A stretch of 64,000 nucleotides of DNA from a virus (IMGVR_UViG_3300010275_000472:6276-70275), one strand, 5' to 3'; counted from the first letter of the stretch, positions 6,001-16,665 are shown. Translations and numbers: made by a program. The notes: a model not told the origin generated them from the sequence alone.

Positions 6001-7171
6001 CGATCAGCTCTGCATCCGTGTAGGCATCGCTCTGCGTTGTTTGTGCCGCCGGAGCACTGGCCATTGCACCGCTGCTCTGTGCCAGCTGCAGCGTGTTGTC
6101 CCGCGCTGCATACCGCGTCTTTCCGCCGGTCATCAGGCGCAGCAGCTCCTGCTGCCGGTCGTCGCTCTGTACATCCTGCTGCAGCTGCTTCCAGTTCCCG
6201 CTGGTCGCCGCTGCATTCTTTGCGCTCTGTACACCGGTCTCTCCTGCCAAAAATATGCTTGATGCCACCGTGTCCCCAATGCCGCCAATGGTATTGGCCG
6301 CACGCCGCGCTGCACGCTGTCCTGCAGGCAGCGCATCAAAGTCGGCAATGTACTGCCGCGCTTCGCTGATCTCCTTGCGGCTGTATCCCTTTGCCAGCAA
6401 TTCCGCGTCGGTGTAGTCCCGTCTGCCCGCACTCTTTTCCGGCACTGCTGCTCTGGCTGCAGCACCGCTCACGCTCTGGGGCTGCATGGCGTTGTTTCCC
6501 TCAGCATAGCTCTGTCCACCGGTGCCAATGCGCATCAGCGTCACAAGTTCTCGGTGCTTCGGGTCAGCGTCCATCCACTGGTTCAGCCGGTCAAAATCAC
6601 TGAAGTCGTCCGTCGCTTTCAGGTCTTCCGTGTACTGCTTCACCTTCTGCGCTGTCTGTGCGTACCAGCCTTCGTCTCCGCCGGCAATGCCTGCAATGCG
6701 CTGGCGCTCAGTGGGCTGCACCGTTCCCGTCACCTTTGCCGCTGGGGCTGCAGCGCTCTTCGCGTTCAGCCATTCCGGCTGCGCAGTGCTGCTGCGTGTA
6801 CCTGTACCGCTGTCGGTCACAATGCCGCTTTTGCCCGGATATGCCTGTGTGCTGCCTGCTTCCTGCGGCACTGTCAGCTGCAGCTTGTGGCTGCTGTCCG
6901 TGCCCGTCATCTGCGCCAGCACCCGTGCACCAAGACCTGTGCCTGTGTTCTGCCTTGCAGCCGCAGCCGGACTGGCAGCATTCTGTCCGCTGTTTTTCGC
7001 TTTCCAGCCCTCCCGCGCTTTTGCAATGCGTTCCGGTGTCCACTTGTCCGTAGTGTTTGCTGTTCCCGCAGCTGTATCGGCGCTCGCCGTCCGGTTTGTG
7101 GTGCGGCTGTTGTTTTTCGCTTCCCAACTTTCTCTGTCTTTTTTCAGTCTTTCCGGTGTCCATTCGCTCAT
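1..7171 (-). CDS. Giant polyvalent virion protein (>2390 aa, 3' end outside window): N-terminal repeats, zincin HExxH domain, two tandem MuF-C domains, helical C-terminus
   Basis: ATG at 7171 with GGAGA RBS. Hand translation shows LHEDYHW (4061-4081), EELVAD and two MuF-C-like domains in 2340-3550 with no stops. The ORF track lists no - strand ORF in this frame, implying no stop before the window edge. Confidence 0.88.
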   Translation of the reverse strand, partial: MSEWTPERLKKDRESWEAKNNSRTTNRTASADTAAGTANTTDKWTPERIAKAREGWKAKNSGQNAASPAAAARQNTGTGLGARVLAQMTGTDSSHKLQLTVPQEAGSTQAYPGKSGIVTDSGTGTRSSTAQPEWLNAKSAAAPAAKVTGTVQPTERQRIAGIAGGDEGWYAQTAQKVKQYTEDLKATDDFSDFDRLNQWMDADPKHRELVTLMRIGTGGQSYAEGNNAMQPQSVSGAAARAAVPEKSAGRRDYTDAELLAKGYSRKEISEARQYIADFDALPAGQRAARRAANTIGGIGDTVASSIFLAGETGVQSAKNAAATSGNWKQLQQDVQSDDRQQELLRLMTGGKTRYAARDNTLQLAQSSGAMASAPAAQTTQSDAYTDAELIEKGYTQQEIDNMRARIAGTEVHDSVDPEKSFGYQLYKRGQDLTAAAQAGLSPIAKQALGIVSSAGENLAVAAIDPAWVLPVLSAQGGAEAMGQSIEKGESAGKTLAGGLAKFGAGWAINSVGAADLAKTMGSDYAKDTLAGKLADMVRSVAADGTLAQQYPAVANAISGGVDNAMQAFVETYADKAIDAALGDSEAAADLFKSDTFFTALESGLTGGASGALGGAVGTGLAKMNGGDASIVGNVKQAYYEGKVEQARQALQDEVRAQEPGTAMQQTPEEAAAGIRQPAAATQETVQPEVTGAASGFATIQDTAPMVQSENPAVQDGQLTSKTINLFTPNAANEANRAAFAEEYGIELPETAAKTRQVLREMTTQQRAAQAPAAATENATVEAQKTAAIVEKMEADRSAQQAQTESELGRRGAAVENTGERVESSPAEQSGGMRETYGLEQQSLTTKQREVQQELTRWQVSDGASATISRNMPTEIGDAGRYAAAASSLYRLGQMEDVPTFDKAMELAQGMSGLAVNTDYVLAQDGGRAALQLAWLQGRGELEAGNMQRASLGGRLTAESTSGSGRVLYKGTMRTANEVGTQLIELNAKATNTDAVLKTVLQGSDRVRAYVDTETARIFFSDRAEDVFGTILHEDYHWYNSLDTEGAQALQQHALEFLAKSEGFEGIDEMIRGKLSDYAQQGLSYEEAAEELVADAWRGIFSDEASFKRWVEFQRGQAEKNAGKAGGIHKVMTKVKELLSDIVSRAKEVLARDPENKAALKAQRLAAAEKRVLQDEYFAHAERAMDSLRAAKENAAALENKGAAEGARYEINPEYAGKIDEWDREGRSDDEVFILGRTGDTLQQLGARENDIYMNSDKIDRILHDHPEMTLEEIKRIPEVLDDPVMVLTSQNKGRSRQNTRLVMFGSVKAQDGRPVLCVLDLRPVEDHIVLNDMQKVTSAYTKDNDPAGFVRRSDVLYISESKEKTTELFRTLGFQMPSELQSSGLVGSITYGNQDVKLEGVKFAELEKTDVPVKKNIRLQLDEHFENEVDKIDLKATWSKRIRVGSTSEVLQSIGVKDQNIYWDSGKIRKILTKHSAENFAAGVDDSIMTKDIIKQVPQVLENPVIVLHSDTGVNADYASRIYMFGEVYDKTGKPVDVSLELLPTNNKGLELDNIMVTSAYGKRNVQGLLNRDQLLYIDPNKKRTDTWLAVNRLQLPLRISKYGSIASLRYDEGNVKSVDVIENENVPGVRFQLAEQASRDAKKNDQQMASRTIADKAAALDTLSQFFGLTRGVKVSRTAMEGLASRWAKANGSKVDRAKLARETEVLVDYLKADGADMEKANALAETLAGEILDGAVYRNSELWDEYPELHRLEYAVNKNGSAKEELVKAYGSWSAAVAEARKHGVSLRQADGVRDGNPAQQYESVINDNRAMGGTSDGAKALWKAAAQQAGVDGAMSMESTEWLNVLMNLHDAIKPATMSRFADDAEYEDAKIELAGRIIGDIMATPEMTDAEAIFEGIQQHNMDVARAAAGSEERAAEVTRKLRGVQKAQQREFGRRMSRNTHDMQREALEKGWAERNPELAQEGFKTSGDVNESLTVLRERFERQLKEQAKRLKAERQEMLDEAYLWYNERMGELREENAYLAEAVKGEQNRADRAERSLLIQEQELQDWDAENERKRAEWAEKQARREAEAEAQWNAYADKAQEIALDAATYQKMLAEKRVQRARDARKMDELKRSIRQNAAQLNQMLLRPSKDKYVQPGLIDAAAQVAKLADMTILNERAVNQLTRLQDRIRQSAGSESSPNAMTEEWKQTGVDTLIQTLRDDLQTTKDAKLTKLHEQLAEAEALPDSEKAWALQERLRKRIRETENRTYLPMTVDQMRMLKAITSSTLHVIRNANKTVSLAKAEEVSAIAEGAASEVNASKGNHPGGKLDGMHNLLTKYQLDMLGAERVFRMLGGYAKNGQMEKMATMLNDGQYRQTKITVEGEKLFANVTGKEHVKEMQNFA

Positions 7172-12253: not shown

Positions 12254-13276
12254 TTAGTTTGCCAGCGCCTTTGCGCTGTAGCGTGCCGAGCAGCTCTCAA
12301 TGCGCACCATGTACTGCTCACTCAGCCGTTCCGCCGTCTTGGTGGCCTTCCAGCCCACAGAAGCACGCTGGTTCAGCGGGTCATCGCCGTAGCCCAGCTG
12401 CTTCACAATGTGCTGCATGCCGCCGCCTTCCAGTTCGGTGGTCGCGTAGGCGTGGGCACCCAGCACCAGCGTGCTGTACACGGCCAGCCCCGACGGGCAG
12501 CCGGTACCCTTCCACACCTTTGCCTCGCTGGAAACCACGAACCGCACGTTGTTGATCTTGCCGATCTCGCCGTTGAAGATCTCCTCCGGTGCCGCATACT
12601 TGTGCGCCTCGATCCAGTTCGGGTCCTTGCGGATGTCGTAGCTGGTGTGCGGGTGCACAATGGCCACAAAGCTGTCTCCAATGGGGTCTGCGTTCTGGGT
12701 CTGCAGCAGCGCCACTGCCTGGTCGATCAGATCCACCGTTAACTGTGCAGTGGCATCCAGATCCGCACGGCTGGTCACGGCAGTCTCCGCGCCGCCCGTA
12801 CCGATCTTCGGTGCATAGATCACGTTGGTGCCGCCGTTCAGGATATCGCGCACAATGGTGTCCATGGTGCGGCCGCCCTGGCTTGCCAGCACATTGGTGG
12901 CCTGCACGATGTTGTTGTCAATGGCCGTCAGATCCAGCATGTCGGTCAGGGGCACCCAGCCGCCGTACTGGTGCACCTCAGCGGTCACGGTGGTCACGTT
13001 CAGTGCCTGGCCTGCCGGGGTCACGCCCTCGGTCAGCGGCGTGGTCGCCTTGGGCAGCGCGTCATACTTGCGGAACTCAATGGTCTTGCCGTTGTTCGCC
13101 GGGATCGGGTAGCTGTCGCCGAACTGGTCATGCACCAGTGCAGGCTCTGCCAGATCCAGCAGGGTCTTTTCGTAGTAGGTCTTCATCTCAGCCGTCATAT
13201 CGGCTGCGCCCGTGGTGTTCTGCAGCTGTGCGCTTGCGTCCGCAAACATCTGCAGATCCAGTCTCTTCTTGCTCAT
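12254..13276 (-). CDS. Major capsid protein, N4-gp56 family, with N-terminal Prp-type cleavage motif
   Basis: MSKKRLDLQMFAD start; GKTIEFRKY, LTEGVTP, HQYG motifs; GGAGG RBS before 13276. Confidence 0.88.
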   Translation of the reverse strand: MSKKRLDLQMFADASAQLQNTTGAADMTAEMKTYYEKTLLDLAEPALVHDQFGDSYPIPANNGKTIEFRKYDALPKATTPLTEGVTPAGQALNVTTVTAEVHQYGGWVPLTDMLDLTAIDNNIVQATNVLASQGGRTMDTIVRDILNGGTNVIYAPKIGTGGAETAVTSRADLDATAQLTVDLIDQAVALLQTQNADPIGDSFVAIVHPHTSYDIRKDPNWIEAHKYAAPEEIFNGEIGKINNVRFVVSSEAKVWKGTGCPSGLAVYSTLVLGAHAYATTELEGGGMQHIVKQLGYGDDPLNQRASVGWKATKTAERLSEQYMVRIESCSARYSAKALAN

Positions 13277-13334: not shown

Positions 13335-14699
13335 TCACAGCACAATGCGTTCTCCGCGCTGTGCCCTGCGTGCCAGTTCTTTCCGCTGCTGCCGCGTCAT
13401 GTGGGCCACATCCACCTTCATCTCGGCCGCGCCGCCGGGGTGTGTCCCGTTCTCAGCCGGGCGTTGGCTGCGCTGCTGGATGCGTGTTGCCACGCCCTGC
13501 TCCACCTGTTTTGCTGTGCGGGCCGTCTGGTTTTCCATCAGGCGGTCAAAGTAGGCTGCACGGTACGCCGCTTCCAGCCCCACGCCGCGCCGGATCATAT
13601 CCGCCACAGCAGGGTTGTTCAGCACTTCGCCCAGTTCAAAGTCCGGGTAGCTGTTTTTCAGCTTTGCCGCTTCCGCTTCCCACCGGGCACGCACTGCCGC
13701 TGCACGCTGCTGGTGCTCTGCGGCCAGCCGCAGCTGTTCAGCCTGCTGCTTTTCAGTGTTGGCGCGCTGCAGCTGGCTTTCCATGCGGTCCATCTCCCGC
13801 GCAGTTTTCACGCTGATGCCCCGCTGCGCCGCCAGCGTTTCATAATATTCATCGTTCTTCACCCGGCCGTTTTTCACGGCATCGATCAGCCCGTCCATGT
13901 CGCTCATGTCAATGCCGTAGGCCTCGGCCAGCACCTTGCCCAGCTCGTTCAGCTGCGGGTTCTCCCGGATGCTCTGCACCGCCATCCGCGCAGCATGCTG
14001 CATGGCCTCTTCAAACTCTTCCGGGTACTGCTGCATCGCCTTTGCAAAGGCATTCCGGCGCTGTTCCGGTGTCAGCTGCACTTTTTCTTCGGTTTCGCCG
14101 CCCTGCTCCTGCTCGTTGCCCTTGTCCGGTTCAGCTTCCTCCTGCGCCAGCCGTTCGGCATCGGCTTTCTCTCCCTCATTGAGGGAGCTGCCGCCCGCAG
14201 ACGGCTGAAGGCGTTTTTCTGTTGCCGCTTTTGCTGCTTTGCCCGGCCTGCTGCGCTTCGCAAGCCGCTCCTGTGCGGGCCGCAGGGCAGGCGGTACCGC
14301 CGGGCTGCTTTCGCCCTCTGCAGCTGCCGCACCCTCTCCGGCCCCGTCACCGGCACCGCCGTCCGCAAACAGCTGCAGGTCCATGTTGTCCGCATCGTTT
14401 GAGTGCAGGTTCACAAACCGCACATTCGCCGGATACTGCTGCGCCAGCAGCATCAGTCCGTCTGTCACCAGCTCAAACTTTGCCAGAGTGTCAAAGCTCT
14501 GGCTCGCCTGTACACGCAGGATGTTGTCCCCGCCCGGGTCGCAGGTCGCAGTGCCGCTGTCCACGCTGTAAGCCAGGCTCTGCATCAGTGTACTTACCGC
14601 CGCGCATACAATGTCCTGTCCTTTCGGCGCATAGCCCGCGTGTCCCGATGCCTGCAGGCTCATGTCCTTTCCTTTTTTGTCGTAAACAATGGTGATCAT
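13335..14699 (-). CDS. Prp-family cysteine protease fused to capsid scaffolding protein
   Basis: aa1-97 carry GHAGY and DIVCAAVS (His20/Cys32), then MDLQLFAD, then a coiled-coil scaffold, all in one reading frame. Confidence 0.85.
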   Translation of the reverse strand: MITIVYDKKGKDMSLQASGHAGYAPKGQDIVCAAVSTLMQSLAYSVDSGTATCDPGGDNILRVQASQSFDTLAKFELVTDGLMLLAQQYPANVRFVNLHSNDADNMDLQLFADGGAGDGAGEGAAAAEGESSPAVPPALRPAQERLAKRSRPGKAAKAATEKRLQPSAGGSSLNEGEKADAERLAQEEAEPDKGNEQEQGGETEEKVQLTPEQRRNAFAKAMQQYPEEFEEAMQHAARMAVQSIRENPQLNELGKVLAEAYGIDMSDMDGLIDAVKNGRVKNDEYYETLAAQRGISVKTAREMDRMESQLQRANTEKQQAEQLRLAAEHQQRAAAVRARWEAEAAKLKNSYPDFELGEVLNNPAVADMIRRGVGLEAAYRAAYFDRLMENQTARTAKQVEQGVATRIQQRSQRPAENGTHPGGAAEMKVDVAHMTRQQRKELARRAQRGERIVL

Positions 14700-14712
14700 T
14701 CTGTTTTTCTCC

Positions 14713-16665
14713 TTACTCCTTGTTCGGGTTGTTCACGTCCATGGCCCGCTTTGCGGCCTTGGTCGCCATGCTGTTGCTCCCGCTTTCGCCCACCACATCT
14801 CCCAGACTGTTGGTGGTGCTCTTCGCGTCCGCGGTCCCGCCGCCCCCTGTTCCGGCAGCACCGGCAGCCTGTCCGGCCGCGCTGGCTGCTGCGCTCACGT
14901 TGGTGCCGTTCTGCTGGTCAATGATGGCGGCCATCTTCTGCATCTGCTGTGCCATCTGCTGCAGCTGCTGGTACAGCGTGCCGTTCTGGCTCACCCTCTC
15001 CCGCACCTTCTCAATGCCTTCAAAGTCCATCATGTCCAATGCAGCAATGGCAGCATCGGCGTTGGCCGGTGCAAAAAATCCCAGCTGGTAGCACTCCTTT
15101 GCCGTCTCGTTCTGGGAAAGGCGGCTGAAGGTGCTTTTCTTTGCCGCGCTTACCGTAATGTCGAACACCGGCTCGTGGTCGCCCAGCTGCACGCCGCCCA
15201 CATTGCCGCCGGGCACGGCCTGCAGCATCGCATTGCTGAACGGCACATACTCCACGCCGCCGCTCTCGCCGGTAATGCGGTATACCCGCTCTTCGTCGTA
15301 GAACTGCCGCATCAGCTCGATCACAAGGTAGCATTCCTTTGCAAACGCCCGGTACGCGCTTTTCAGCATATCGCGGCTAAGCTTGCTGCCCGCCTCCTGC
15401 AAAGCCGCAATGGCGCTGGCCGCTGTCAGGCCGCTGGTGGTGCCGCCCTGGCTCACATCCCGGTTGCCGCTGATCTCCTTCAGCTCGCTCACCCGTGCAT
15501 CCCGGTAGCTGATGCAGTTGCCGCTCAGCACGTTGGTCTGCAAAGGCCGGAAGCTGTCGTCCGTCAGCCTGCCCACCACGTGCACGATGTCCTTGCCAAA
15601 GTCGGCCAGCTCTTCTTCGTTCACACCCGCTGTGTCGCTCAGTACATAACGGGCCTTTGCTGCCATCTTCACGTTTTCGTCCATGGCGTGGTTCATCTCG
15701 TCAATGGCGGTCTGGGTGTCCTTCATCACATCAATGTATCCAAAGCCCGCCGGGCTGTCCTCTTCCCGGAACAGTGGGTCAAACACAAAGGGATATTTTC
15801 CGTGGTCGTAAAAGCCCCGCTGGGCATACTGCGGGTCGTTCTCGCTGGCATACAGCACCACGCCGTTGCAGTATTTGCAGTAGTGCAGCACCGTCTGCCC
15901 GCCCTCAAGGGCCTTTTTGTAATACCAGTCCACCACCACGCTTTTGTCGCTGGTGTCAATGCTGTCGTCGTGGATGTACTTCGCCGTGTCCAGGCTGCTG
16001 CCTGTGTGTCCCGCCATCTGGGGGTAGATGCTTTCCAGCCGGTCGTTGTTCTCAAGACTCAGACTGAACAGGTTCGGCGAGTCCTGCACGTCCTCCACGC
16101 CCGGCTCCCAGTACAGCATCAGCAGGTTCATGCTTTTGATGCTGATGTCGCCGAGACCTCCCCGCAGCGCCGGATCCCAGAACACGCCCTTCACGCCGGT
16201 TCCGGTCTTGAGCTTGCGCCACCATGTGTCGCTGTATACCGTCTCGTAATCGCACTGCTCCAGCACTGTGGGCAGGATCTTTGAGAGCGCCCGTGCGGTC
16301 TCTTCGTCGTCCTGTGCCCGCGGCAGCACGTTGGGCTCCGGGTAGTTGTCCATGGCATCCGCGTGCTTGTTGGCAATGCTGTTGAACAGCCATCCGCTGG
16401 AAGGCTTGGGCTTGCCCTGCATCATCTTGTTTTCGTAGTTCTTCCAGTGCCCCATCCGGAACCACAGCTCGTTATCCACGATCCGTTTGTCAAGCTGCGC
16501 TTTGCCGGCCTTGTATTTCTGCAAAATGTCGTTTGCCTTGCGGATGTCCTCTTCCCCGATCACCTGCTGTGCGGGCAGTTCCGGCTCTGTCGTCAAGCCG
16601 TTTTCCCCCACCAATGGTGCTTCATCGAAGTGCTTGATAAACTGTTCAAATTTTCCTCCGTCCAC
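14713..16665 (-). CDS. Portal protein (P22-like size)
   Basis: 650 aa between terminase and scaffold; Q-rich coiled C-terminal barrel. Confidence 0.85.
   Translation of the reverse strand: MDGGKFEQFIKHFDEAPLVGENGLTTEPELPAQQVIGEEDIRKANDILQKYKAGKAQLDKRIVDNELWFRMGHWKNYENKMMQGKPKPSSGWLFNSIANKHADAMDNYPEPNVLPRAQDDEETARALSKILPTVLEQCDYETVYSDTWWRKLKTGTGVKGVFWDPALRGGLGDISIKSMNLLMLYWEPGVEDVQDSPNLFSLSLENNDRLESIYPQMAGHTGSSLDTAKYIHDDSIDTSDKSVVVDWYYKKALEGGQTVLHYCKYCNGVVLYASENDPQYAQRGFYDHGKYPFVFDPLFREEDSPAGFGYIDVMKDTQTAIDEMNHAMDENVKMAAKARYVLSDTAGVNEEELADFGKDIVHVVGRLTDDSFRPLQTNVLSGNCISYRDARVSELKEISGNRDVSQGGTTSGLTAASAIAALQEAGSKLSRDMLKSAYRAFAKECYLVIELMRQFYDEERVYRITGESGGVEYVPFSNAMLQAVPGGNVGGVQLGDHEPVFDITVSAAKKSTFSRLSQNETAKECYQLGFFAPANADAAIAALDMMDFEGIEKVRERVSQNGTLYQQLQQMAQQMQKMAAIIDQQNGTNVSAAASAAGQAAGAAGTGGGGTADAKSTTNSLGDVVGESGSNSMATKAAKRAMDVNNPNKE

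Follow-up and report, generated by a model that had tools for sequence, protein, structure and literature searches.

A Prp-family cysteine protease in one chain with a putative head scaffolding protein in a Faecalibacterium prophage

The fusion gene and its neighbours

In the window (the whole 64,000-nucleotide stretch of viral DNA that was analysed), genes for a large terminase, a P22-like portal, a Prp-scaffold fusion and an N4-gp56-family major capsid protein follow one another in this order, and the fusion gene is part of a prophage (the record, G000, is a provirus). The fusion gene is a single open frame of 454 aa without an internal stop, in which two family matches stand side by side (Table 1). 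Residues 1-93 match the Pfam family PF04327 (Peptidase_Prp; E 7.7e-15, 55.3 bits against a cut-off of 27 bits), residues 1-96 match phrog_4478 of the PHROGs collection, which is annotated as 'peptidase', and residues 106-453 match phrog_13908, a PHROGs profile of 294 positions with no assigned function. The preliminary description of this DNA had placed a protease with intact His and Cys in frame with a scaffold, linked to it through DLQLF/AD (here and below, the stroke marks the cut, known or predicted), and had noticed DLQMF/AD in the capsid protein. These observations stand: the frame is continuous, it encodes both His20 and Cys32, residues 107-111 read DLQLF with AD directly after them, and the capsid protein carries its own copy of the motif.

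Table 1. Features of the fusion gene and the adjoining genes; positions are counted from the first nucleotide of the window
Feature	Position	Strand	Basis or remark
Whole Prp-scaffold fusion gene	13335..14699	-	454 codons + stop; two family matches side by side
Shine-Dalgarno AAGGAG	14709..14714	-	9 nt 5' of the fusion-gene ATG; overlaps the portal stop codon; read from sequence
Prp cysteine protease domain, residues 1-100	14400..14699	-	PF04327; AF2; Foldseek
Codon of predicted catalytic His20	14640..14642	-	Invariant in 39 diverse fused sequences
Codon of predicted catalytic Cys32	14604..14606	-	Invariant in 39 diverse fused sequences
Junction motif D107-L-Q-L-F111/A112-D113	14361..14381	-	Predicted scissile bond between nt 14367 and 14366
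Disordered Ala/Gly/Glu-rich linker, residues 112-205	14085..14366	-	AF2 pLDDT <50 over most of the linker
Short conserved helix PALRPAQERLAKRS, residues 137-150	14250..14291	-	Inside the disordered linker
Putative helical scaffold domain, residues 206-454, conserved C-terminal helix	13338..14084	-	phrog_13908; AF2; gene between portal and capsid
Major capsid protein, N4-gp56 family	12254..13276	-	TIGR04387 324 bits; phrog_1357 major head protein; start revised to ATG 13276
Capsid leader motif D-L-Q-M-F/A-D	13238..13258	-	Full 11-residue leader MSKKRLDLQMF at 13244-13276
Portal protein, P22-like	14713..16665	-	PF16510 E 2e-30, phrog_156; directly upstream of the fusion gene

The N-terminal domain is a member of the Prp family (PF04327, MEROPS C108, clan CR), and every family feature that was looked for was found in it. 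The AF2 model of the domain (pLDDT about 90-96) has a beta-beta-alpha-beta-beta-alpha-beta fold, and Foldseek aligns it with the solved Prp structures 2g0j, 7jvs, 7kld, 2idl and 1s12, with E values of 4e-6 to 2e-4 and target TM scores of 0.68-0.84 for 2g0j, 7jvs, 7kld and 1s12. In BFVD, the model matches viral proteins annotated as 'YsxB-like' and 'cysteine protease', and a sequence search of the PDB with the fusion returned S. mutans Prp as the sole match. In the alignment with S. mutans Prp (2g0i), the region around His20 falls on the GHAG motif of that enzyme. Cys32 lies 12 residues past His20, as is the case for His22 and Cys34 of S. aureus Prp (PMC9405229), and the glycines that flank the loop are also kept, i.e., G19-H20...G27...C32 here vs. 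G21-H22...G29...C34 in the S. aureus enzyme (PMC9405229). Apart from the catalytic pair, the residues G19, A21, D29, V31, A33 and S36 are invariant among the 39 diverse fused sequences that were compared.

Within this family, the domain belongs to a phage subfamily and is not an orthologue of ribosomal Prp. This follows from the score against the best NCBIfam ribosomal Prp equivalog (PRK14553), which at 40 bits lies far below the cut-off of 136 bits, from the position of the gene between portal and capsid genes, and from the L27 of the host, which has no leader (see below).

The C-terminal domain is taken to be a scaffold, an assignment based on the position of the gene, the type of fold and weak structural matches. 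In the AF2 model, residues 206-454 are all helices with pLDDT >90, and a single helix spans residues 297-350. Foldseek matches in BFVD to annotated scaffolding proteins are weak (E 8e-4 to 8e-3). The features of phage scaffolding proteins that were looked for, namely the position between portal and capsid, a helical and elongated form and a conserved C-terminal end, were all observed.

The start of the capsid gene is most likely ATG 13276, which has GGAGG 8 nt upstream, and not the mechanically assigned TTG 13294, which overlaps its own Shine-Dalgarno sequence. Read from ATG 13276, the capsid protein begins with MSKKRLDLQMF/ADAS, and this leader is kept in the capsid proteins of relatives as K(K/R)L[DN]LQMF/AD.

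The joint motif and its predicted processing

The joint between the two domains is marked by a motif that is far better conserved than its surroundings. The pattern [DN]-L-Q-x-F/[AG] is found at the joint in 140 of 143 fused sequences; among these 140, the P4 Leu and the P3 Gln never vary, and the P1 Phe is present in 138. One apparent exception, P0076, reads DMQLF/AD. In the 39 diverse fused sequences, L108, Q109 and F111 are each kept in at least 90%, whereas the flanking linker varies. A six-frame translation of the 64-kb window contains [DN]LQxF[AGS] at two places only, the fusion joint and the capsid leader. Prp is known to cut between the F and the A of such a motif in ribosomal protein L27 and in both the capsid and the scaffold protein of phage 80alpha (PMC5744158).

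Given these data, the gene probably encodes a head-maturation polyprotein, in which a Prp-family cysteine protease (residues 1-100) resides in one chain with an internal scaffolding protein. The protease would cut the chain past Phe111, at the DLQLF/AD joint site, and thus release a Prp of 111 residues and a scaffold of 343 residues; the target could be the chain that carries the protease or an adjacent one, within a dimer or the procapsid. The same fused protease would remove the 11-residue leader from the N4-type capsid protein. The fusion would thereby bring one protease per scaffold molecule to the assembling procapsid, as in P2 gpO and the herpesvirus precursor. Self-cleavage at the joint is what we infer from the motif itself and from its pattern of occurrence in relatives.

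The linker supplies one further argument for cutting. In the AF2 models, the disordered stretch extends over residues 101-205 and holds one short conserved helix, and among relatives the linker is variable in both sequence and length. The longer linkers of relatives contain inserted modules of 29 and 48 aa, located between Prp and scaffold, and each module ends in a Prp site of its own. The 29-aa module has the consensus AKxELLQPPAGGxSLMEGAGGE..LDLQxF and the 48-aa module the consensus AATATTAACGGNREELLGPRPAGCKAR..NPxGxLDLQxF (module-bearing relatives: L003, L005, L007 at 6313-6600, L008, P0025, P0077, P0080, P0082 and P0110; columns 113-207 of alignment A1). The number of motifs rises with linker length, from one in linkers of 34-44 aa (96 sequences) to two in linkers of 72-120 aa (18 sequences) and three in a linker of 117 aa (a single sequence), and none of these counted relatives has a long linker with a single motif. 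An additional motif with each inserted module is hard to explain without cutting.

It is also conceivable, albeit quite improbable, that the joint stays uncut. The motif would then be a relic leader or a bound pseudo-substrate that quiets the protease, and Prp would remain attached to the scaffold and either trim the capsid protein alone or act as a chaperone. Strong purifying selection on the motif inside an otherwise variable and disordered linker, and the arrival of each module with an extra motif, are difficult to reconcile with such a relic. In its favour, the AF2 models of the full-length protein and of residues 1-130 show no docked conformation of the joint motif, which is disordered (pLDDT <55) and lies outside the active site. 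However, this docking run is uninformative: the models were of single chains only, whereas Prp works as a dimer. [quoted passage not shown] Thus, even where the polyprotein is cut, as we consider probable, cutting need not be essential here.

The start of translation offers a different way to obtain a free scaffold. If the genes were nested, most of the scaffold would be produced from an internal start at Met106 (MDLQLF/ADGG...), and the full-length protein would be a minor product that supplies a few protease copies, comparable to lambda C/Nu3 and UL26/UL26.5. In 15 of 16 distinct loci, the codon just 5' of [DN]LQ is indeed ATG or GTG, and in the sixteenth it is an ATC directly preceded by ATG; moreover, in stand-alone scaffolds of the family the same motif lies a few residues from the start. 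Some relatives also have Shine-Dalgarno-like words at suitable places (GGAGG 5 nt 5' of GTG in L004-L006, AAGGAG 6 nt 5' of ATG in L013), so that some members of the family may initiate their scaffold internally. For the gene in the window, this arrangement is nonetheless unlikely. Neither the window nor its closest relatives have a Shine-Dalgarno-like word before Met106 (the 24 nt in the window are ctgcactcaaacgatgcggacaac), which agrees with the earlier remark that the internal Met lacks a good ribosome-binding site. In diverse fused representatives, the Met106 position can also be L, I, Q or T, and substrate preference would equally call for a hydrophobic residue at this point, six positions ahead of the cut: the capsid leader, L27 and the second-site motifs all have Leu there.

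Two further elements of the linker should be mentioned. The short helix PALRPAQERLAKRS is predicted by AF2 at residues 141-149 (block pLDDT 77), and P137, L139, R140, P141 and A142 are invariant among close relatives (alignment A1); it could be a docking site for the portal, the capsid protein or Prp. At the DNA level, the linker modules fold into strong hairpins (-42 and -68 kcal/mol) and have the appearance of structured DNA that was inserted in frame, with cleavage sites at its boundaries. The linker in the window holds a two-hairpin word, CTGCGGGCGGCAGCTCCCTCAATGAGGGAG (14171-14205, minus strand), which encodes ..PSAGGSSLNEGE.. within the disordered region, and the homologous gene of L007 holds the same word twice. 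A genome-wide REP element was considered for this hairpin DNA and ruled out, because 0-4 copies of the word per Faecalibacterium genome do not amount to a high-copy REP.

Distribution, origin and host

The fusion is very common. At least 5820 significant homologues are of similar length, compared with 281 matches to shorter proteins. Among the 120 matches listed, almost all carry PF04327 and 117 carry the catalytic motif GH...D.VC, the remaining three being without the N-terminal part. The fusion is present in Faecalibacterium genomes, among them that of the cultured F. langellae CNCM I-4541. A Prp match was found in 74 of 81 Faecalibacterium species genomes, with 89 matches in all; the open frame is 306-581 aa long for 80 of them and 125-187 aa for the other 9. 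The closest copy of the fusion in the window (95% identity) is found in a Faecalibacterium genome (G068). At the 50% identity level, about 28 fused clusters can be distinguished. The preliminary description had proposed to check whether the fusion is conserved in relatives, and it is: the catalytic dyad and the joint cleavage motif are kept, and a stop between the domains is not the norm.

These counts bear on the question of whether a lost stop or an assembly error simply joined two genes. Stand-alone Prp genes and stand-alone scaffold genes do exist in other phages, and frameshifts divide the gene in a few close relatives (P0167, P0181, P0236 and L026). Nevertheless, several sources have yielded thousands of independent assemblies in which the frame is open, with identities as low as about 35%, and an artefact or pseudogene is extremely improbable; the homologue counts, the survey of Faecalibacterium genomes and the 50% clusters exclude it. 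The idea that split forms are the ancestral norm among close relatives was likewise rejected, because the three short Prp-bearing matches that were read (P0167, P0181 and P0236) are frameshifted copies of the fused gene. A split version is seen at L026 (G019:C31), where a scaffold ORF in a different frame overlaps the 3' end of a Prp frame of 138 aa by about 68 nt; the scaffold ORF carries the motif as ..CDICDLQLF/GEGG, and the arrangement may represent a genuine two-gene form, a pseudogene or a frameshift error.

A shorter Prp-scaffold fusion of 310-325 aa is present in most of the 81 Faecalibacterium genomes (exactly 310 aa in at least 15), for example at L012 (G001:C11:38584-41853), at L025 and at about 60 further places, and the portal adjoining it is 71% identical to the portal in the window. 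In operon I of the Faecalibacterium gene transfer agent (FpGTA; PMC12946183), a gene is listed as 'head scaffolding', and the 310-325-aa class probably corresponds to it. The FpGTA operon I belongs to the same host genus and contains a podovirus-like head module (PMC12946183), whereas the gene in the window is part of a prophage and is about 130 residues longer than the 310-325-aa class. The FpGTA paper lists the 'head scaffolding' gene and mentions neither a protease nor Prp in connection with it (PMC12946183). Full-text literature searches returned no description of a Prp-scaffold fusion.

The origin of the joint can be read from scaffolds that have no protease attached. About ninety 50%-cluster representatives of the scaffold family stand alone, at about 280-360 aa, and at least 33 stand-alone scaffolds have a leader that ends in [LIF]-[ND]-L-Q-L-F/A-[ED]-G-G, at a median of 12 residues from the N-terminus. 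Since stand-alone scaffolds of the same family begin with the joint motif, the joint, as judged by sequence comparison, is the old scaffold leader, whose first few residues the Prp domain appears to have replaced. In a tree of the scaffold domain, fused forms cluster (8 state changes vs. 26 with shuffled labels), and a well-supported clade of 82 members consists almost entirely of stand-alone forms. Among the fused genes, the tree also places a few true stand-alone ones, which indicates that fusion and fission have occurred more than once.

A variant leader, L-x-L-[RTS]-L-F/D-G, is present in at least 26 stand-alone scaffolds (e.g., P0276, P0289, P0303, P0312 and P0329). It has no Gln three residues ahead of the cut and has Asp past the cut, which suggests that the processing protease comes in a second specificity class.

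The host itself sheds light on the role of the fusion. Host facts were taken from the genomes of relatives, as the record of the window is a 70-kb provirus without host ribosomal genes. In Faecalibacterium, rpmA directly follows rplU, with no prp between them (ribosomal loci L014, L015, L027 and L030-L035), and in all nine loci that were read L27 starts as MAHKKGVGSTKNGRDS (MAHKKG), 7-9 nt past a strong ribosome-binding site, and has neither a leader nor an LQxF motif. Other genera of the same family have a Prp of 105-146 aa that scores 60-91 bits, and the two other-genus loci that were read (L036 and L037) show the order rplU-prp-rpmA together with a leader-bearing L27, MLKLSIQFF/AHKKG and MLRLNMQFF/AHKKG. 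Judged by its ribosomal loci, Faecalibacterium has lost both prp and the N-terminal leader of L27; this joint loss was not found stated in the Prp review (PMC9405229). In Faecalibacterium, nearly all Prp matches belong to fused genes; among the short-frame matches, the one that was read (L026) is a split phage copy. Because the genus has no prp, no Prp-family protease other than the phage enzyme was found in the host genomes that were searched.

These results affect two proposals of the preliminary description in opposite ways. The first, that the fusion makes assembly independent of host Prp, is well supported, since in a host genus without its own prp the phage cannot borrow the host enzyme. 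The second, that the protease might also act on host L27, fails for Faecalibacterium. As L27 is the cellular substrate of Prp (PMC5744158, PMC9405229), a phage Prp could in principle have taken over the processing of L27 as a host function. However, without a leader on L27, there is nothing in this host for the phage Prp to cut; the equivalog score of 40 against 136 bits also speaks against such a role, which is scarcely credible in general and is refuted for the host genus by the leaderless L27 and the lack of prp at the locus.

It is tempting to connect the loss in the host with the gain in the phage. Phages that depended on host Prp to mature their heads may have put Faecalibacterium under pressure to shed prp and the L27 leader; the Prp-scaffold polyprotein would then be a counter-move of the phages, later inherited by the GTA, and mobile elements would now be the only home of Prp in this genus. 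We regard this scenario as rather unlikely. A genome of another genus (G164) has its own Prp together with a fused prophage copy (..ALLQLF/SNKG) and a capsid that begins with MIIFDLQMF/AD, which indicates that the fusion is not simply a response to a Prp-less host.

Implications and counterparts among known systems

The fusion is real and very common, and the way in which it combines two known designs is undescribed. If the proposed processing is correct, Prp, a ribosomal-protein protease borrowed by one staphylococcal phage, would here have become a true phage prohead protease that is built into the scaffold, and the protease-in-scaffold design, so far known for unrelated serine proteases, would extend to a cysteine protease. 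The Prp-scaffold family is very common in human gut metagenomes, and because it probably includes the FpGTA head module, the maturation step may bear on gene transfer in a key commensal. The protein also offers a clean test system, as the 454-aa chain should process itself at its six-residue tag when made in Prp-less E. coli. Furthermore, Faecalibacterium, having no prp and no L27 leader, would escape drugs directed against Prp, whereas its phages and GTA might not.

The closest counterpart in terms of cleavage chemistry is Staphylococcus phage 80alpha, whose scaffold (gp46) and capsid protein (gp47), like the proteins described here, involve the Prp family and carry F/A motifs at their N-termini, KFNLQFF/AD and LNLQHF/AS (PMC5744158). 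The alignment of family profiles with hhalign places the 80alpha motif on the fusion joint; for both 80alpha gp46 and gp47 of the Enterococcus phage phiFL3A, the motif was aligned and the scaffold bodies showed no detectable homology to the family profile. The protease that serves 80alpha is the ribosomal Prp of the host, the phage having none, whereas here the enzyme is phage-encoded and fused to the scaffold, and the host is without Prp. In terms of gene order, phiFL3A is the nearer system: its gp45 encodes a Prp ('peptidase', DUF464, PHROG 4478) directly past the portal, as here, and its scaffold gp47 and capsid gp48 have leaders of the type described above, MEQKKLLLLNLQFF/AE and ..MNLQIF/AA, respectively. 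However, Prp is a separate 104-aa gene in phiFL3A, and the host of that phage has its own Prp, whereas protease and scaffold form one polypeptide in the phage studied here.

The joining of a protease to a scaffold is in itself an established design. The herpesvirus UL26 protease-scaffold precursor and lambda C/Nu3 are protease-scaffold fusions of this kind. As in the gene described here, the chains of P2 gpO, UL26 and lambda C each start with a protease and end with a scaffold, and in those systems the enzyme cuts both itself and the capsid protein. P2 gpO, for example, consists of an N-terminal protease and a C-terminal scaffold and cleaves itself as well as the capsid protein (PMC7552001). 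The enzymes of these three systems are serine proteases of unrelated folds, whereas the protease in the Prp-scaffold fusion is a clan CR cysteine protease with a short joint site of the L27 type.
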